The translations under genes and the position numbers were made by a program. From NCBI GenBank assembly GCA_003971905.1, contig RSEE01000008.1, positions 806,001-870,000 on the forward strand: DNA of 64,000 bases, in the 5' to 3' direction. This DNA is from Moniliella sp. 'wahieum' (lineage: Eukaryota). Numbering within the stretch: the first letter of the stretch is position 1; each line of letters begins with the position of its first letter. This document shows, piece by piece, positions 7,692 through 51,789 of this stretch. The notes below the pieces were generated by a model. The model was not told the DNA's origin, searched no databases, and was given only the letters and a program-made list of their open reading frames with translations.

Positions 7692-10600
7692 TTAGTAGCT
7701 GCCAACAAACCGTCAGTACCAAGTCATCGCCACTTTTCCCAGAAAGCACATACAGTCGCGCTGCGATCCCCAAGGCCCCGAGTTCCTGGAACAGAAGTTT
7801 GGCCGCGTAGGGATGTAAACTTGCGACACCTCAGTCCGGTTTTTGCACGACCGGCACTCAAACGTTTCCCTTCTTGAGGTTGGCAATCGCCGTCAGGCCA
7901 CAAATGTCGCACACGTGCAGACGGTAGGCATCCGACGCATCAAACATACGTTCCTTGAGGAACGACGCAATGCCATGCGAAATCATACAGTCCCGCTCCA
8001 TCTCTCCGAATCGAAGACCACCTCCGCGCCACGACCCTCAACCGGCTGACGGGTTAGGATTTGTACAGGCCCACGCGCACGCGAATGGATCTTGTCATCC
8101 ACCATGTGCTTGAGGCGCTGGTAGTACGTCGGGCCCAGGTAGACTTGCGCCTGCAGTTTGCGGCCGGTGTGGCCATTGTACATCACCTCCAGCCCACGTT
8201 TGTGGAAACCAAGCTCACTCAGGAGCGCCGATACGGCCTCGACGTCAGCTCGGTAACGGCGTAGCATCGCCCTCATTCCCCGACAGCGTGGCTACCTTGG
8301 ACAAGAGGCATTCCACCAAGTGTCCAATGGTCATACGCGACGGAATGGCGTGCGGGTTGATGATAATGTCGGGCGTGATGCCATCAGCGCTAAAGGGCAT
8401 GTCCTCTTGCCGGTAAGTAATCCCAATCGTACCTTTCTGACCGTGGCGCGAAGCAAACTTGTCACCCGTCTGGGGCACACGAGTACTGCGCACGCGCACC
8501 TTGACAAACCGCTGGCTGTGGTCGTTGCTCCGTCAAAAGCACTTGGTCCACAATCCCATTCTCTGTACTCTTGAGCGGCGTCGACACGTCCCGTTTCGTA
8601 TGCGTCGACACACGCAGCCCAAGCTCCTCGCTGTCCGTCGGCAGCGGCGCCGTCTTGCCAATGATAATGTCACCCCCGAAACGCGAGTGCCGGGGGAAAT
8701 GAGACCGTCCGAGTCAATTTTGTCATACGTGCCATGCTTCATACGCAGTGTTGTCTCCCGCGTCGGCTTCTCAAACATCTCCAACTGGATCACGCCCATC
8801 TTCTTTTCCATGTCCGTGTAGCAGCGGTAGTAGAGCGAACGGAACAGACCACGGTCAATCGACGATTGATTCATAATCACCGAGTCTTCCTGGTTGTACC
8901 CCGAGTAGCACAAATCGCCACAATCGCGTTCTGGCCAGCTGGAAGCTCACGGAAACGAAGGTGCTCCATCGAACGCGTCGTAGCCAATGGCTTCTGGGGT
9001 AGTAGAGGATGTTGGCCATGGTGTCCATGCGCATCTGGTAGTTGGTCAGGTACACCCCCATAGCCTGCTTGCCCATGGCTGACTGGTACGTGTTACGCGG
9101 AGACTGGTTGTGGTCGGGGAAGGGGATGATACTGGCACAGATACCCAGAATCATGGCGGGATGGATCTCACAGTGCGTCCACGTTTTGGGCGCAAAGAAT
9201 TGCGTCGAGGTCAACCGAGCAGAAGGGTCCATGCCCTCCTCCGTTCCCTCGCCACCCCGACGAGCGTTGAAACCTTCGGGATCAGCGTTGTAATCGCGCG
9301 AGTTCTTCAGGTCCCAGGGGCCCATACAGATCAGCGCTGTCTCCTCCTCGTCGGCGTCCAGGTACTCGATCAGGCCATTCTCCACCATATCCTCCCACCG
9401 GAAGGCCTTCCCTCATCGTTCATCCCGTTGTTCAACCACTCAGCATGGTACCGCTTGACCCGTAGGACCGAGTCCTCGACAATAAACAACGGCCGTAACA
9501 CGCGCCCACCGTCCGTGTAGAGTCGCAGTTCTTTCTCACGAATGTCATGCACCATGCTCACCTCGTTCGAAATCTCGTTCCGGCGACGCATCATACGCAC
9601 GAAGTCCACCAGCATAGTCGCGCTCGTTGTGTGCCGAGCCAAACGCCATTGACAAATACCTTGGTAGCGCGATTATTGGCGACTTGCATGTCCTCGAGCG
9701 AAAGCAACGAGTACTCATGCAAGAATTGGACGATTGGGGACGATGCCGAACCGACCGAAATGGTCGACATGAGACTGAGGTTCTTGACCAGACCACAGGC
9801 TTGTCCCTCGGGCGTCTCGGCGGGGCAGTTGTGGCTAACGAGGCTGTTGGCAAAGAACGAATGGTTGGCCGACTCGGTAGTGAAGTCAAACACCGCCTCC
9901 GGCTCCACTTCCTCCACCGACTCGATCGGGCACCAGACAAACCCTTCGGCTTCAACCGCTCGCAAGCTCTGGAACTTCTCCCACGACATGAAGCTTGGTG
10001 TAGAAGACCCATGACCACTGCGCAGCAGGCGAGAGAACGCCCGTCCCATGATCGAACTGGAAACTGGCTCCGTCTCGATCCGAGCACGTTTCGCAAAGTG
10101 CGCTTGCGACTTGAGGTATTGAACGGGGAGCGCACTCCGCCGCGTCTTAGCTGCACAGTAGCGATAACCCACATGCTCGTGGAACGCAACCAAGTTGCCT
10201 GCCCTTTGTGTAAGGTGCACTTCTTCTCCCTGGGGGGCAGCTTTGACCCCGACATCGGAAAGGAGGACTGCGATTTGTCCAGCCAACTCCGTAACGAGAG
10301 GAGCCATGCAAGGCTTCCACGCCCGAGTAGAACACATGCGGATCGTGTCTCCTTTGGCACCAAAAATACCCGCAAGGAACTCGCGCTTGACGAGGACAGG
10401 GGCGTTGAGGAGCCAAGGAGGGAGGAGGGTGCCGGCACTTATAGCAACGAGGAAAGCCTCAGCCGCTGAGGGCAGCAGATCGGGGCTGCCCTCGATGGCG
10501 GGGAGACCGAGGGTACCAAGGTCCGAGTTGACCGCAGCAACATCAGCCGCATCGCTGAGCGCCAACCTCCGTCCCTGAACACCAGAACGAGCACCAAGCA

Positions 10601-12747
10601 GGCGGGCAGTAGCCAGAACCTGGGGCAGCGAGAGGTCGGTGTCGACCAAACCACATTGCGAAAGGGCCAGGGCCTCCACCATGGAGGGGGCAAGGCCAGT
10701 GAGCTGGGTGCGCGCAAGACGCAACGTAAATGGCGGGGGGGGAAGTACTTAGATTGCGGGGAAACGAGGATCATATCTGTGCCGGCCTGCAGTTGACCGA
10801 CTTTGGTCCACGAGGGTGAGAGCGGGTTCTGTGCCGCACGAAGAGGATGCTCGGGAGTGGCTTTGATCACCCTTCCGTCCGTCAAAGTCACCTTAAGAAG
10901 ACGCTCAGGCATCTTGCGGAACCAATGGTGGATGCCGCTCCGCTCAATCTCCAGCGACGACGGCTTAATCGTCGCCACCTCTTTGCCGTCGGACAGGTCT
11001 GCGATGCGCGCCACATCCATTCCGTTGCCCAGTACCACCTCCGTATCCGCCGTGACACAAACCATACCCCAATGGGTGTTGTGCAGCTGCCGTGGCTTGG
11101 CAATCTTTCCATCTCGTCCAATCGGGGTGTTGCACCGCCGCAAGTGGGACAAGGTGGAGGAGAAGGTGTACCGGTTAAGCACTTGCGACACACCAGCGCG
11201 TGCAGACATGAACATTTTTGGTCGCCCCAGTTGCCCGTCGCAACAGAGTACTTTAGGCCATTGGTAATGGTCGACGCCTTGACAGCTTGGGTAATGTGGA
11301 AATCCTTCTTCTCCTCCACGCACTTTTGGAGATGGCGGTAGATATCGCGCGTAAGCTTGCGGAAAAGCATGCGGAAAAGGCCTGCCAACAAAGGCCCAGC
11401 CATGTCGAGACGCTTCTTGCCGAAGTGGTCACGGTCATCAATTTCGCGCCGCTCGAGGGCAGTGAGTAGGAGACGATGAATCATGTACCCAAGAAGTAGG
11501 CCTTCTTGGTGTTACTCCCCTCAGACATGGAGATATGCGGCAGCATCTTCTGCAGAATCTCCTGCGCGTAGTGGCGACGTCCACGCGCCAGACCAGTGAC
11601 CGTGCCACGTCGACCAATCCAGTGCATTCTCCCGATCTTGGATGCTGAATGCCTCTTCAATACAGGGCTTGAGCATCTCAAGCATCTGCGTGTCGTTGGG
11701 ATCGTAGCAAATGTGCTGGAGGATTTCACGATCGGGGACAATGCCGAGCGCACGAAACACAATCACGATCGGCACGCCTTGATGTAAGGCAAGGTAGCAC
11801 GGATCACACTCCCACTGTTACCCTTGTCGCCCGAACGGGCAAACATTTTGACCTGCATTGTGCTCACCGTCTTGCCTCCCGTCTCAACCGCACTGCGAAT
11901 CTCAGCGAGGTAGTTGACTGGCGAAGGGGCTGACTTGGAGAAGACATATACATGGTTTGCCGCCATCCTCTCTTGGGCAATCAGCACCTTTTCAGACCCA
12001 TTGATGATGAAGTATCCACCCGAGTCGCAGGGACACTCATCCTTGGCATACTTTTGGTTGTCGTCCATGTTGGTCAAACGACAAACGTAGACTGAAGCAT
12101 GATGGGCACTTTGCCAATGAAGACCTTCTGCACCTCGGTGGCCGCGCCACGCTCCGCTGGCTCCCATGTATCATCCCATCCTCCACCTTGAGGTACTTGC
12201 GCTGCGTCACATCAAGGAAGATGGGCGCGGCATACGTCAGGTTACGCAGGCGGGCATCCTGAGGGAAAAGCGGACCGGTGGATCCATCGTCCTCCGTCTG
12301 CTTGGGGAGCGAGTGAGATTTGGCCAAAGACGATCTCATACCGAATCTGCGCAAGAGTCAGCATGATAGGAAGGAAGGAGAGACGGCATCGGGACCGGAA
12401 GGGGAGTAAAAATACGTACGGTCCTGTCGTCAATTTCGCCATTGTACTGCTTGGCTTGCTCGAGGGTCAGCTGGCCTACTTCCTGGACGAGCTCCTGCAT
12501 GGTGGTGCCGAGGAAATCGTTGAACGAGTCGAGCTGCTGACGGACAAGACCGCGCGAGTCGAAGAAGGAGCGGATAATGTCCCATGAATCCTGCTGCCTC
12601 AGCTCCTCCTCCTGGGGGTCGTCGTTGGCCAGGGGGTACTCGTCAGCCTTGTCGAGGTACGAGTCGTAGTCCTTGGCTCCGTCTGAGGGGGGGCGGGGGG
12701 TCAGTCAGCATGGGCGGCAGCAGGAACGCGCGGAAGGACGTACCCAT
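7692..12747 (-). CDS. RPB2: DNA-directed RNA polymerase II second-largest subunit, intein-containing precursor
   Basis: ATG at 12747. Introns 12683-12743, 12347-12419 and probably 7699-7753. Motifs [127 protein letters not shown] and [10 protein letters not shown]. Multiple indel frameshifts. Confidence 0.98.
9828..11059 (-). mobile_element. Class 1 intein (~411 aa) with a LAGLIDADG-type homing endonuclease domain, inserted in RPB2
   Basis: Interrupts [11 protein letters not shown]. Block [14 protein letters not shown]; block [21 protein letters not shown] (TxxH); endonuclease-like [12 protein letters not shown] and [13 protein letters not shown]; block H-like [14 protein letters not shown]; block [17 protein letters not shown]; block G LVSHN followed by +1 Cys. 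It spans 1232 nt, and adding one base in the G8 run at 10735-10742 restores a single frame. Confidence 0.96.
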
Positions 12748-20700: not shown

Positions 20701-23700
20701 TGTCGGGTCGCAGAGAGGGACCGTGAGGGTGGCGCGGGGCGAGGTTGAAGCGAGTTGAGCAACCACTGGGTCGAGGTACGCCAGGCCGAGCCAATGGTGG
20801 AGCTCGAAGGCTTGTTGTCTTCCGGTTCAGACACAGGGTCCTTGGGCGGAGAGCTGGGTGGCAGACTCTGCAGGGAGGTAAGTGTCACCGAGGCTGGGGA
20901 CCGGCTTGACGACTTGTTCTCGGCAATCACGGGGAAGGGTGCAGTGACCGCGGCGGGGGTAACGAGGGCCTGAGCCTTGCCCAGTCTCATGTTGGACAAC
21001 AGTAGCTTGCTCCCCGTGCTCGATTGGAGCGATCCTTGGCTCTTTTTCCGCATCAGCGAGAGCGCAGTCGAAGTCAACCGGACTTTATTCGGTGTTTGCT
21101 CTGTCTTGGGTGGACTCACCGTGTCTGCCGCAGCGCTGGTAGCAAGAGAAGCACGTTTAGATTCCTCTGGTAAGCGGGAGGTGACCTCGGGTAGATTTGG
21201 CAGGTCCGAGTGGCGCATGCGTGCGCTGTTCGATGGGGATCGCCAGGAGCCCGTGACCAAAGTGGGGATGGCCAGGGATCCCGAGGAAGCTTTGGGCCCC
21301 CGTTCTTTTGCCAGTCTCCGCGAGTGTGTAGGGGAACGTGGAGCGGAGAGGTGCCCCGGGTTGATAGGGAAGGCAACTGGGGACTGGGAGTATGCCGGCT
21401 CCCTCTCCTCCCCGGGGGCAATCGTGGCCGAAGGACGATGCGTTGGTCCGGTCCATTCCGCGCCTCCACATCCGCCATGACGCCCCGGTCGAAGATAGCA
21501 CGAGCAAAGGCCGGTGTCAACTCTGTGTCTGCCGCCTTGGCTGCCGCATAGAGAGGAGTGATTCCCTGTCCTGGTGATGCCGACAAGGCCTGATCTACCC
21601 TCGAGTCGGGAAAGTCAACCGTGAGGTACGTGGAAGGGGAGACACTAGCCATGGATCCGTACCGTTGGTTGCGTTGGGCGCGGCGGATCTGGGCCATGGT
21701 GGACTTTGAGTGGACGGGGATGCTAAAGGAGAGGGAACGGGGGTTGACCTTGTTTGGTACAGATGCCATGTCCAGATAAGGAATGGATATGCCGGCGACT
21801 TGGTTTTCCATCACGCCCATCATCTGGATATCGTACATCTTCGATCGGGGCACGAACCGGTCTTCACGGAATGGTTTGTCCCGCTGCACATTGAAGAATG
21901 AACAGTCAATCCAATGGGGCAGAGAGTAAAACATGATCTTGGATGACTGCACGCGGCCATTCCTTCGCCCGCCACGCTGGGACTCTTCTTCATCGCTTCC
22001 AGCTGAGGAAGAAGGATCGTCGTAGTACAGCGGATCGGGGGGCTTGTTATCCTCCCCCGTACCATCCACCATCGTTTCACGCAACCGGTTGACACGAGGC
22101 ATGATGCCTGAACCCATACCAAATGTATGCCGAGCATTACTGAACGATTGGCCAAAGGAGGAGCGTGACCCGGCAAAGGTCATGTTGTTTGGTCCGGGAT
22201 TCCATGGCCGAGAGGATGTCCCCGCTTGGGTTGAGTGGCTGCGTCCTTTGCCCATGGGTGCATCCACATCAGGCACCGAGGACCAGAATTGGAAGAGTGG
22301 GACAGAATGAAGGGGCATCTTGGTCAGACAGACCAAGTCCAGTGCCACACCACTTTCGACCATGCGCTCGGTAGTGGCGCGCAGCAGCTGCTTGGGCACC
22401 TCGAAGCGTCCCGTTCCGGCACTAACGATGGTGATACTGAATCCGGTTCGATTCAGGTCGCGGTCAACATAGTTGCGGTCAAACGGGTTAAGCGCGAGGT
22501 TGACTGCCTCAAGAATGTTGCCTTCGTAACTCGCGCACAGCTTGCCTGCAGTGAGGGTATGATCGGTGATAAGGTCGTGATGGGGATGGGCGTGTTGGGG
22601 CGCTGGGCCGGATACGGGGCGGCGGATAATGAGAATGTCGTGTTGGAAACGAAACACTTCTTCCTTCAGACGGCCCATCACGTCCACCCAATTTGGTGCC
22701 GGATCTGAGTCAAGAATGACCTTGTAGTAGTCCACGTACGCCCTTCCTCGTTCATCACGTCGCACCGGCCAGTCCTCAATCATGTGTAGCTCGTGCTCTT
22801 CGAACAAAACGCGACCGAAGAGAATGACGCTGACCAGATGATTCGTTGGGACCGCGCTCCAGCGCCGAAGAAGTTCGGGGAGAAACCCATGGATGGCCTT
22901 TTCATTATATAGTTCACCATCTTCGTCAAAGTCCCACATCTCCTTGCTCATCTGGATAAAAAGATAAAACTTGGCGCTGTCCGATCGAAAGATGGTTTTA
23001 GTAGAGGCTGACACGTAGCCAGAAGAAACAGTGCGCTCCTTGATGAAGATGCGTCCCACCGTGGCACGCACCAGGTTGGAGAGGGCAACTTTTTGCCCCA
23101 CGTACACACACGTGTCCTCCAACTGTAGTGACAGGCGCCACATGTCGGCGCGTCCGATGAACTGGTCGCGAAAGTAGAGCTCAACGTGGGAGATGGTGTG
23201 CTCCTCGACGGGCACCTGGGAGGGGGGGGGGAAGGCAAATACCCGTTGTCAGTATCGACGCACACAATCCAGCAAGAAAGGGGAAAGCGTACACGCGTGA
23301 TGAGAACTTCGGTATTGGTGCGCATGCCCATCGCATTGCCAATTGAACGAGAGAGGGAGATGTCCAAGCCGGTATCGGCCTCTAGCATCTCGCTGAACTG
23401 ATCCGCCTCTTGCAGCGCGTAGCTCCAACGAAACACGATGGAGGGCAAGGGCAGCGCATCGAAGCGCCGGTTGTGGGTGCGTGGCGGACCCGAGTAGGAG
23501 GACACGTCGGCGGCGTTGGTAAAGCGCAGGACGCCATCAGCTGGGGTGTTGTTGAAGTTGTTGGGGCCAAGGGGCCGGGACGAGGAGCGGAGCTCCGGGT
23601 GGGCGTCTGCCGGGTTGGCCAGGCGGACCTCGAGGAGCATGTTGTCGCTCATCGGACCACCCATGTCGCGGTCGGGGTTGATGGCGATGTCGGACGAGAA

Positions 23701-37811: not shown

Positions 37812-39892
37812 CTAATTCTTCTGGGCCAGGCGGGCCAGGACGGAGCAGAATTCCTTAGGAGAGACAATCTCCGTCGCCCCATAAGTGATCCGCTTGGGCA
37901 CGCCCGCCTGGGAGGAGGATGTACGCTGCTCGTACTCGCGCAAGTTGGCATACTCGACATAGCTGCCCCCGCCCACCACAAATACGACCGCATCGTTGTG
38001 CCCGCTAGCCGAAACAGGCGCCGATGTATCGGCCACTGTCCGCCGCTTGGGATCGAGGTAGAGGTACTTGTCGGACTCTGTCCTGGCCTGCGCCGATGCT
38101 TGAGCTGGGTCCATTAGTGCCTTGACCAACCGCGTCACCGTCTCGTCCTTCTGTGCTGGGAGGAAGTTCTTGACCCCTGCAACTAGGTTCTCGAATCCAG
38201 AATCTTTCAATCGTTCCCCCAGCGTTCGCCCCAGAGCACCAAACCCTTTAAACAGATCTTTCCCCTGGGCAGGGGCAGGTGCTGGCGCCGACGCCAACGA
38301 CATCATCCGAGCCGTTTGGCGAATGCTGCATAGACGGAAAGGTCAGCAAGTGATCAGTCAGCAAAAAAGGGAGGAGGGTGAGTGTCGGGGGAGTGGGGGT
38401 GGAGAGGGGGGGGGATGTACCTTTGGACATAGCGAAGTGCAGATAAATCAGCCCCAGCTGCCGTTAGCGCATCCTCGAACGTTTTCAGCTCGTTGGGTCC
38501 CAATTCGACGGGGCTGGAGAGATAAAAGATCAAAAAGAGACGAAGCTTGTCTTGAGCCGCCCCGGACCAAGCCGTGTTTTGGATAGCGTCCAGCACGGTC
38601 TTTTGAGGAACGTTGCGGATGCCCTCCTCGATTTGGAACAGCTCGTCCAAGCCGCGGTCGCGGATGCCTTGCAACAAGGCCGTGGCAATGTTCATGTGAG
38701 CGTCCAGCACAGTCTTGCGCGCGGTAAGCGCCGGGAGAGCTGTAATAGCCGCTTTCAAATGGAGCGCATTGTTCCCTTCCAGCGAGCTCACATCGTCCAA
38801 AGGAGAAATGCCCGTTTTGCGCGTGAGCTCAGCAGCATCAGCCTTGTACTTGCCCAGCTCCTGGTCAATGTCGGCAGCAACCTCGGGGAAGGGCTGCACG
38901 ACATTCTTTGTCCAGAAAAAGTCCTTGCCATCCAGATCGTACGTCTTGGCTTTGCCTCCCTGCTCCGAGGCGGGAACACTGACCCGGTTCAAGCGCAGCT
39001 CCAACACGTCGTCCACCAGTGCTTGGTACGTCCAACTGTGAGCAAGCATGGGGACCAAGTCCACATCTCGATCCAACAACAGGAGTAATGGTCGTTGGGA
39101 AACCCACCCCTCGGCCGCGGATCCAGAGGAAAAGAGGTCGCTGGCGCCTCGGGTAGAAGCTAGGTGGGAGCGAATGAGCTCATCCAGTTCACGAGCCACC
39201 AGCTCGGCAGCATTCCCACCCGGTGCGCGAATGATGGGTATGCCACCCCCTCGAGTGGCTAGCACACTGAAAAGGCCATGCGCAATGCGGCTTGCTTCCG
39301 CGCGGACTGCCTCCTCGCCCGCGCCCGGAGCATACAGGACTTCGTACGTGTTGTGTTTTTGCGGGGGAGGGAGCAGCTCGAAGAGTGAGTTGTCGAGCAC
39401 AACAAAGTCGAGGTACTGATCAAACACCTGCTCCACCCCAGCTCCATCCGACTTGGTGGCAACTATCCGGGCAAACTCGTCGAGCTGCGAGTCGGAGAGG
39501 GGCGAGATGAAGTTGACAAGGATCGACTCGTAGGCTGCGCGGGCTAGATCGTCGGCGATCCGAGTAAAGTTGGCGGTGGTGGGGGCAACAAAGTAGACCG
39601 CAGGCACATCTGGAAGTGGAGTGGAGGTCGGTCGGAATGAAGCTGGAGGTGGAGGGGTGACGCCGGCCTGGCGCAGGTCCTGGACCGTCATGAGGGGTGC
39701 GACCACCTCCTGGGCAGCGCTGTCGAGCACGAGCACTTTCCAGGACGGGGCGGCCGCGGCGTCGAGGGCAGCCGACGGAGAAGGAGGCTTGCCATCGCCG
39801 CCAGCGACCGCCTTGATGCGCGCATCGGCGACGGGGCGGTTGGAGTTGAGGAGGGCAAGCAGCGCGCCCACCTGGGCTTCGCGCAGCGACAT
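37812..39892 (-). CDS. SLY1: Sec1/Munc18-family protein Sly1
   Basis: [91 protein letters not shown]. Intron at ~38331-38420. Confidence 0.95.
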
Positions 39893-40286
39893 GGTGGTGC
39901 CCTCCGGCATCAGCGTGCAGGCGCCGCCGAGGGCAAGGCGGCCAGAGGGCAACCCTAGCCAGCCGCCACGTGGAGATGAGCTTACGGCAGGCGTGGCCAC
40001 ACGTGATGCGTGCGACGGGAGGTGACATCACGTGCCATGTCATGGGTGTGACCGACTAGGGGGACAAGCCACTGCTGGGGGAAGAGGCTGCCAAGAGCTG
40101 CGCCAGACTGCCCCACCCCGCTGCGCCGCTGGCCCCCACCTGCGCCCGCTCGGGCGGCGCCTTAGGCCTTAGCGGGCCCTGCGTCGCCGCCGATCCGATC
40201 AGCCCGCAGCCGCATCCACCTGCCCCCTATCTAGCTCCTCCCCCGCCACCATTGCGCCCTCAGCCCCGCTGCTCACCCTGGCCGCC

Positions 40287-50769: not shown

Positions 50770-51789
50770 TTAGGCCGACTCGGTGGCAGGCTGCTCGGCC
50801 TCCTTAGTGGTAGCCGGAGCCGCTGCGGCCTCGCCGGACGCAGCCGCCGCAACACCGGGAGCAACGTCGGGGGAGGCAAAGATCGAAGCCTTGCTCGAGA
50901 AGAGGCCAAAGCGTTCGTAATCGACACCCGAGACGGCGTAGACGAAGTACGAGAGGCAGAGACCCTTGGACAGAAGGTCAAGAACACCGTAGTAGATGAA
51001 CTCGCCGTCGGGAGAAATTTCGTTGCTAGCATCGGCCACAGCCCAGGCGATCACATACACAATCGTCCACAAGGCAAAGCCCGAAACGACGGGAATGTAA
51101 GCCCAGAAAACGTCCTTGCCAGTCTTCTTGGCAGCCAAAAGAGCCGGGCCAAAGAGGACCCACAGGACCCACGTCAGGGCGCACACGCCGAAGACAAACC
51201 AACCCCACTTGTAGCTGCTGTGCGTAAGAGAACCAGCCAAGCCACAGACGACAGCTACAGTCTCAATGAAGACCGTCATGAAGATGGTAGACAGGGGAAC
51301 GGGCGAGACGAGAAGAATGGCAATGATAACGAAAGGCGTCGAAACAAGCCAGTCGACATAGCGCGAGATCCTGATCAATAGCGAAAAGTCAGTACCTCGT
51401 TGGCAAGGCAGTTGCAACCAAATGCACAAGGTCACTCAAGGAGTGAAAACGCACCAAATAGACCGCGTTGCCACATCGTTAATCCCGTTGCCATTGCCTT
51501 TCCAGTGACCAGAGCGGAACTCGACGGACACAGGAACCGCGCCGAGGTTGGAAGCAAGAGCGTACCAGTTGAGTGCATTGCACGCCAACGTCGCAGCGAT
51601 GAGGTAGTTAAAAGTACGGTGGCCGCGGTTCACCGCGAAGAAAGTGTAGGCCGAGAGAGCCAAAAAGATAACCGTTTGAACAGCGAAAATGGCCCAAGCA
51701 AAGTCGCTGCCGTGCGAGTTGACAGTGACGTTGGACGCAACCGGGTTGCTCGACACGGAGTCGCGTGCAGTCATCCACGGGAGTGACAT
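50770..51789 (-). CDS. Microbial rhodopsin-family (fungal opsin/CarO/Hsp30-like) 7TM protein, paralog A, 311 aa, intact
   Basis: GSDFAWAIFAV; ASNLGAVPVSVEF; TRSIW|ISRYVDWLVSTP across intron 51371-51454; SSYKWGWF; YYGVLDLLSK (helix-G DxxxK). Confidence 0.92.

Follow-up and report, generated by a model that had tools for sequence, protein, structure and literature searches.

What divides the RPB2 gene, which encodes the second subunit of RNA polymerase II, in a contig of the fungus Moniliella sp. 'wahieum', by what means would the cell rid itself of the insert, and how did it come to be there? The stretch analyzed here, referred to as the window, comprises 64,000 nucleotides (nt) of contig RSEE01000008.1 (assembly GCA_003971905.1, positions 806,001 to 870,000 of the forward strand), and all coordinates below are those of the window. 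A preliminary description, made by reading the letters without database searches, had reported a full-size intein that splits RPB2 between V and C by 1232 nt, and the junction codons, which we read at 11059..9828, bear this out. We put a probability of roughly 85% on the overall reading that the insert is a self-splicing RPB2-c intein whose host gene is the RPB2 of a member of the Ustilaginomycotina, that its middle domain is the remnant of a homing endonuclease, and that the frame break at a run of eight C inside it is an error. The parts of the locus are given below, where the sister refers to P0003, a protein whose open reading frame (ORF) is already present, un-annotated, in public protein sets.

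7747..12704, minus strand: RPB2 gene, in many short frame pieces, located by tblastn of the sister protein P0003 on the window
12336..12704, minus strand: RPB2 N-terminal ORF, from the ORF list
11060..11110, minus strand: end of the N-extein, matching Pfam RNA_pol_Rpb2_3 profile positions 30-47 and ending ...HNTHWGMV
9828..11059, minus strand: intein, 1232 nt as assembled; a run of 9 C would make it 1233 nt (411 codons)
10739..11059, minus strand: N-terminal splicing (Hint) region, Pfam Intein_splicing profile 1-74, E = 4.2e-7
10735..10742, minus strand: frame switch, at eight consecutive C (G on the plus strand)
10083..10739, minus strand: middle domain with the predicted LAGLIDADG fold, probable homing endonuclease remnant, from the AlphaFold2 model, VIA-align and Foldseek
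10572..10604, minus strand: LAGLIDADG motif 1, with Gln at the catalytic-Asp position of relatives, from the alignment
10347..10388, minus strand: LAGLIDADG motif 2, with Lys at the catalytic-Asp position of relatives, from the alignment
9828..9893, minus strand: C-terminal splicing blocks F and G with the His-Asn end, Pfam Intein_splicing profile 114-155
9630..9827, minus strand: start of the C-extein, aligned to yeast Rpb2 (1i3q_B) residues 523-588

At the N junction, read directly on the minus strand, the Val codon GTT (11062-11060) is followed by the Cys1 codon TGT (11059-11057), and at the C junction CAC AAC for His-Asn (9833-9828) is followed by TGC for Cys+1 (9827-9825), which reads on as TGC CCC GCC GAG. 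Cys at position 1 and Cys at +1, the pair of nucleophiles that marks a class 1 intein, are both there. The remaining motifs that had been named from the letters are each seen in the translation as well: the insert starts with CVTADTEV, carries block B as T68-P-E-H71 (ACT at 10858-10856 and CAT at 10849-10847), has block F as VFDFTT..NHSFFAN near its C end, and closes with His-Asn before the +1 Cys. The splicing residues, namely the block B TxxH, block F and the terminal His-Asn, are invariant in 9/9 aligned sequences. As assembled, the N part is read in the frame at window:10739-11110 minus (P0001) and the C part in the frame at window:9780-10748 minus (P0002, part of a 385-aa ORF), and the Pfam Intein_splicing profile matches both, the N half with 30.3 bits (E = 4.2e-7) and the C half with 17.4 bits (E = 4e-3). 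The sister carries the intein as a single open frame, and the Pfam domains of Rpb2 are found in it. By alignment to 1i3q_B the +1 Cys corresponds to residue 523 of yeast Rpb2, in agreement with the position first proposed, and we take fork loop 2 to lie just upstream of this residue. The accessible part of Goodwin, Butler and Poulter (2006; PMC1635734) assigns the RPB2-c site to the fork domain, with the Dictyostelium RPC2 site ten alignment columns further downstream, and the window sequence fits this.

To which family does the insert belong? A search of longer proteins with the C part of the intein found an intein-bearing RPB2 at E = 2.7e-81, a value that chance does not explain, and its matches (7/7) are RNA polymerase second subunits holding a homologue at WGxx/C...HN/CPA[ED]TPEG, where the slashes mark the junctions, each with a precomputed intein domain. 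The 19 matches of the N part, from P0003 (1), Coemansia (16) and Batrachochytrium dendrobatidis (2), are likewise all intein-bearing second subunits. When junctions were checked in 12 further records, the N junction was present in 11 and the C junction in nine, the remaining records being truncated; in the 17 related records having both junctions the insert forms one open frame with its exteins. The N splicing region of the window is 80-81% identical to that of the sister, 64-68% to Coemansia and 50% to Phlyctochytrium, and its C splicing region is 69-79% identical to the closest named relatives (Coemansia and Phlyctochytrium arcticum). The N part is 51% identical to the RPB2 of B. dendrobatidis (E = 1.5e-19), the intein matches that of Phlyctochytrium at E = 4.8e-26, and the family alignment spans the full length.

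The RPB2 of B. dendrobatidis (P0287) has a 488-aa intein at HWGMV/CLSGD... with the same junctions as the window, and a comparison with the catalogued RPB2 alleles, as the preliminary description had suggested, thus ends at the site HWGMV/C of B. dendrobatidis RPB2-c. For this allele a length of 488 aa is also given in Table 1 of Goodwin et al. (2006; PMC1635734), a paper accessible in part. Both marks of allele RPB2-c are present in the window, the identical RPB2 insertion residue and a homologous intein sequence, and the insert is, judged by its sequence, a genuine class-1-type intein of the RPB2-c allele family. The two inteins are alike in host gene, insertion site, fork domain, full-length homology and the arrangement of Hint halves around a LAGLIDADG-type domain. 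However, the host of the one is a chytrid and that of the other a basidiomycete, the lengths are 488 aa and 411 aa, respectively, and the window copy has in-frame deletions in the middle domain and other residues at both catalytic motif positions. The closest named relatives are database copies in RPB2 and RPC2 of Coemansia spp. and in RPB2 of Phlyctochytrium arcticum, which share site and family; Coemansia belongs to the Kickxellomycotina and Phlyctochytrium to the Chytridiomycota, whereas the window host is a basidiomycete. Both Coemansia and B. dendrobatidis also have the intein in RPC2, a paralogue of RPB2. The NCBI records name the Coemansia and Phlyctochytrium copies merely as RNA polymerase subunits, and a full-text literature search, whose coverage leaves out most subscription journals, found no paper describing the Coemansia copies.

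How would such an insert be removed? Both the transcript and the protein made from it would contain the insert, in frame with Rpb2, and the insert would then excise itself by standard protein splicing, in which Cys1 would undergo an N-S acyl shift assisted by the Thr and His of block B, Cys+1 would take over the N-extein by trans-thioesterification, the terminal Asn would cyclize with assistance of the penultimate His, and an S-N shift would restore the uninterrupted sequence of the fork domain. It is almost certain that the insert functions as an ordinary class 1 intein, one on whose splicing the survival of the cell would depend.

What has become of the endonuclease? The 307-aa C part was folded with AlphaFold2 from an alignment of 8 homologues, and the model has a mean predicted local distance difference test (pLDDT) score of 69.8 overall and of 78-94 across the 10-residue blocks 2-13 (residues 11-130); the C-terminal Hint half is poorly modeled, as expected, because it was folded without the N half. 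The model helices 41-55 and 118-130 bear both LAGLIDADG motifs. In VIA-align the model matches PI-SceI (1jva_A) with Z 13.5 over 167 aligned positions at a root-mean-square deviation of 3.5, and further the PI-PfuI and TliVMA inteins (Z 12.8-13.3), WhiA (Z 13.2) and I-DmoI (Z 12.4), with values for PI-SceI, PI-PfuI and I-DmoI running from 13.5 down to 11.5; 50/50 entries among the matches listed are proteins of the LAGLIDADG fold. The best rows of a Foldseek search are PI-SceI (E = 4.3e-3), intein homing endonuclease II and I-DmoI, and the homologous domain of Phlyctochytrium (P0009) reaches 28.4 bits with Pfam LAGLIDADG_3, whose cut-off is 22.5. As modeled, the middle domain has the LAGLIDADG alpha/beta fold with two motif helices. 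Its closest solved folds, PI-SceI (the yeast VMA1 intein) and PI-PfuI, have the same bifunctional domain plan but share only 14-17% sequence identity with it and sit in other host proteins; moreover PI-SceI is an active endonuclease, whereas the window domain is without the canonical acidic residues.

At the motif positions Phlyctochytrium has Asp and Asp (LLGLALTDG and FLGGFFGGDG), and the window has Gln and Lys; in motif 2 of the window an Asp follows two residues past the Lys, in a register set by sequence alignment only. Among 17 family members both acidic residues are kept in 2, one in 3 and neither in 12, and the last group includes the window, the sister and both B. dendrobatidis copies. 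Only one of the 17 inteins is shorter than that of the window (411 aa in a range of 392-519), whose length reflects in-frame deletions in the middle domain. The domain would descend from a LAGLIDADG homing endonuclease that lost both canonical catalytic acidic residues and underwent in-frame deletions, and, because both catalytic positions are substituted, the endonuclease is probably inactive. Given these losses and deletions, the element would now be a fixed passenger that no longer homes, and it may persist because only a precise deletion leaves the invariant essential site intact. Of the complete class 1 apparatus with an endonuclease domain that had been claimed at the outset, the splicing motifs and the LAGLIDADG fold stand, while the frame is broken as assembled and the catalytic acids are substituted.

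In what kind of host does the intein reside? A search with 140 aa of the extein found the sister at 84% identity and the next records at 72-74%, and the best named matches all belong to the Ustilaginomycotina, including Parajaminaea phylloscopi (70%), Thecaphora frezii (69%), Ceraceosorus guamensis (68%) and Tilletia spp. (65-67%). For the extein tree, a quick maximum-likelihood analysis with the Shimodaira-Hasegawa-like approximate likelihood ratio test (SH-aLRT) as the only support measure, we used 29 RPB2 rows, 28 of them hand-chosen from 126 proteins in a set without Ustilago, Malassezia and Exobasidium. The window groups with the sister (support 100), this pair groups with the intein-less P0011 (support 100), and the trio falls within a 13-row clade holding every sampled member of the Ustilaginomycotina (support 100). 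By its extein matches and tree position the host lies inside the Ustilaginomycotina (Basidiomycota), which gives a name within that phylum to the basidiomycete host first proposed. The insertion site is uninterrupted in the next relative, P0011, and in the 125 proteins P0003-P0127 it is intact in 111, interrupted in 7, which are the matches of the intein C part, and not shown in 7. Other basidiomycete inserts at GMV/CPAET, a search for which had been recommended, did not appear: every named basidiomycete in this set whose record shows the RPB2 site has it intact, and the sister shares the insert. The site pattern was not found in the Cantharellus anzutake record P0037.

Can the broken frame be squared with an essential gene? 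Inside the intein there is a single frame switch, at the C8 run (plus-strand G run 10735-10742), and one added C gives YFPPPP..., matching ...SPQPCYIPPPTDYKF... (Y-I-P-P-P) of Coemansia at the same place. In the exteins, compared with the sister, 16 pieces and 14 frame changes were counted in 3148 nt between 12249 and 7870, and at least 2 more frame changes lie downstream of 7870; since neighboring pieces touch or share a few bases, introns do not separate them. Across these pieces the exteins are 93.7% identical to P0003 (963/1028), with zero in-frame stops. At several breaks a short run lacks one base, as with A5 for A6 at ~11210 and TTT for TTTT at ~12085, while others resemble losses of 4-5 nt in small repeats, and the neighboring ribosomal protein L2/L8 gene (6335-7232) is broken at several points in a similar manner. 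Since an essential gene cannot hold so many real frameshifts and yet stay conserved, the assembly must contain indel errors, and the break in the intein is very probably one of them, in which case its true length would be 1233 nt or 411 aa. The splicing apparatus is complete only if this is so, which is likely. Could a small spliceosomal intron beside the C run restore the frame instead? A single GT..AG candidate exists there (10748..10704), and it was rejected, since its length of 45 nt is divisible by three and also too small. Separately, at 11487-11621 on the minus strand two single residues are absent in frame relative to the sister (RG-RRHYAQ against RGRRRQYAQ and LQK-MLPH against LQKEMLPH); codons may truly have been deleted there, or assembly errors may have occurred in pairs. 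We also observed that the most conserved genes are the most damaged ones.

Several observations weigh against our reading. As assembled, 1232 nt is not divisible by three and the insert is not one continuous frame with its exteins. The breaks are unevenly distributed: the exteins have 14 in 3148 nt, the intein has one in 1232 nt, where the same rate would predict about 5.5, and the 1.7-kb Sec1 ORF (38357-40027) and the 2.1-kb IML1 ORF (21119-23248) have zero, so that a simple model of uniform error offers no explanation; we can only guess that mis-polishing by cross-mapping reads from other organisms could underlie this pattern. A scan of metagenome contigs matched 189 pattern stretches with 0 related to the RPB2 locus, and an exact 36-nt pattern beside the C run had 0 matches in such contigs. 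Both half-matches to Pfam Intein_splicing are under the gathering score of 35.8 bits, which we ascribe to the frame break splitting the domain; the unbroken sister scores 40.5 bits against the same cut-off. Foldseek gave no PDB match at E <= 0.001, and no Pfam LAGLIDADG family was found on P0002 at E <= 1; the profile check advised in the preliminary description thus gave Hint matches to both halves, each under the cut-off, and no LAGLIDADG match. Last, the RPB2 and RPC2 copies of B. dendrobatidis are nearly identical although both are without the canonical residues, so an intein that has lost them may still be mobile.

If the frame breaks were real, this RPB2 copy and its intein would be a decaying pseudogene with a functional copy elsewhere in the genome, and 15 frame changes in a ~4.4 kb gene beside unbroken ORFs of 1.7-2.1 kb elsewhere in the window would then be natural, as would the company of a second gene, two RPB2-type genes being reported in the accessible part of the Salmacisia paper (PMC10849329). 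With real indels, however, many substitutions and stops would be expected as well, whereas the extein identity and the lack of stops given above show neither; the adjacent L2/L8 gene, which is unrelated, is broken alike, and several of the breaks are single-base losses in short runs. We consider a pseudogene very unlikely. Far less probable still is removal of the insert from the RNA, as a spliceosomal or other intron, instead of from the protein. With exactly 1232 nt excised the exteins would be in frame with each other regardless of the internal break, but the boundaries are TGTGTC...CACAAC and not GT...AG, no nearby GT/AG pair restores the protein sequence of the junction, and the insert is a conserved protein-coding Hint and LAGLIDADG unit with every splicing residue, kept as a single open frame with the exteins in the 17 related records.

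A chimeric or contaminated assembly, in which the intein-bearing RPB2 piece of another fungus had been joined into a basidiomycete contig, is to be given hardly any credence. The base quality of the assembly is low and the nearest named relatives of the intein (Coemansia) stand in another phylum, as such an origin would have it; yet both flanks belong to the same RPB2 of Ustilaginomycotina type and are continuous with the intein in frame, and the independent record P0003 has the same arrangement with exteins 94% identical. Nor is the insert a Coemansia contaminant, because its N part is only 60-65% identical to that of Coemansia. We thus retain the reading of a self-splicing RPB2-c intein in a member of the Ustilaginomycotina.

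How much of this was known before? The preliminary description knew basidiomycete inteins mainly from PRP8, but RPB2 inteins have already been published from Tilletia, Trichosporon and Salmacisia, at other sites, as the accessible parts of the papers tell. A table of 21 nuclear inteins of DNA-dependent RNA polymerases, in a paper accessible in part, holds RPB2 inteins of Tilletia caries, T. controversa, T. indica and T. walkeri that share one site and an RPB2 intein of Trichosporon asahii at another, together with a Melanopsichium RPC2 intein and the B. dendrobatidis intein without its exteins (Green, Novikova and Belfort, 2018, PMC5784728). From Salmacisia buchloeana, RPB2i and RPB2-likei have been described between the primers bRPB2-7R and 7.1R, and the insertion site is, in the accessible text, that of Tilletia (PMC10849329). 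These inteins resemble that of the window in being nuclear, in sitting in a basidiomycete RPB2, and in having Cys1, a length of ~400-520 aa and an intervening domain, but they occupy other insertion sites and belong to another sequence family (CLTADHEVLT... against CVTADTEV... in the window). Both published basidiomycete sites are uninterrupted in the window, at 9080-9085 and ~7990-8000 on the minus strand. No report of a basidiomycete intein at GMV/CPAET was found in a search of literature open to full-text search, most subscription journals being outside its coverage, and in the supplement of Green et al. (2018), of which long cells were available to their first 400 characters and the B. dendrobatidis row is without exteins, CPAETP occurs only within N-exteins of other inteins. 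The RPB2-c allele and its mechanism are thus already known, the site and family since the B. dendrobatidis report of 2006, and what is new is the host lineage, as had been surmised, and a third RPB2 site for Basidiomycota.

Did the intein descend with its hosts or arrive from outside? The intein tree, made from 17 rows with a careful search, places the chytrid copies in one clade and the Coemansia and basidiomycete copies in the other (100/100), while the forks that set the position of the window and the sister relative to the Coemansia lineages are under 80. Where it is resolved, the topology matches host phylogeny and so is compatible with ancient vertical descent followed by many losses. 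The branches of the window and the sister are long (0.42 and 0.45 on a stem of 0.74), and this pair is 63% identical in the intein against 94% in the extein, compared with 61-70% against 77-87% within Coemansia and 40-50% against 64-68% across phyla. The long branches and the gap between intein and extein in the basidiomycete pair suggest fast and relaxed evolution, consistent with a dead endonuclease. On the other hand, the next relative has an empty site and, between phyla, intein and extein are nearly equal in identity, both of which leave room for horizontal transfer. The identity ratios fit saturation and transfer alike. A still-mobile family that homes between RPB2 and RPC2 and between fungal phyla, with a recent gain in the basidiomycete and the empty site as the ancestral state, is in our view unlikely, and if it were true the same genome may hold a second copy in RPC2.

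The same intein was also seen at the homologous RPB2 and RPC2 sites in Coemansia sp. RSA 1933 (P0128/P0283), in B. dendrobatidis (P0287/P0288) and in the pair P0004/P0284, with copies nearly identical within a strain or species (branch lengths ~0.01). Such near-identical copies point to recent homing or gene conversion between the paralogues. For B. dendrobatidis, only the RPB2 copy is tabulated in the accessible part of Goodwin et al. (2006; PMC1635734).

With this finding the known hosts of the RPB2-c intein reach beyond the chytrids to the Dikarya, and Basidiomycota gain a third distinct RPB2 intein site. It bears on the old question of whether nuclear inteins date far back and have been lost over and over, or have now and then arrived by horizontal transfer; existing knowledge of how inteins work is unchanged by it. 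The insertion site presumably lies inside the fRPB2-5F/7cR amplicon used by fungal taxonomists, and if so, amplicons of relatives would be 1.2 kb too long or lead to a misleading alignment. In the accessible part of their paper the Salmacisia authors raise the same caution about amplification for another site (PMC10849329).

Among the second subunits of RNA polymerases in public data, the stretch WGxx-CPxETPEGxxC is a hot spot for inteins. Of 150 representatives listed (P0128-P0277), about 10 are interrupted directly after WGxx and others have inteins 4 or 10 residues further, for instance P0217/P0242 and P0149/P0156; many of the hot-spot proteins hold two or three inteins and reach lengths of 2000-2850 aa.

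The gene content of the window is of nuclear fungal type, with FSH1, RPL2/L8, CWC25, IML1/DEP, a mitochondrial-type EF-Tu and an M3 peptidase, and further Sec1, RhoGAP, Bap31, GTP cyclohydrolase I and an opsin-like protein, and its guanine-plus-cytosine content is 58%. The opsin-like gene corresponds to an ORF at 50773-51435 on the minus strand, which matches Pfam Bac_rhodopsin at E = 2.3e-14.

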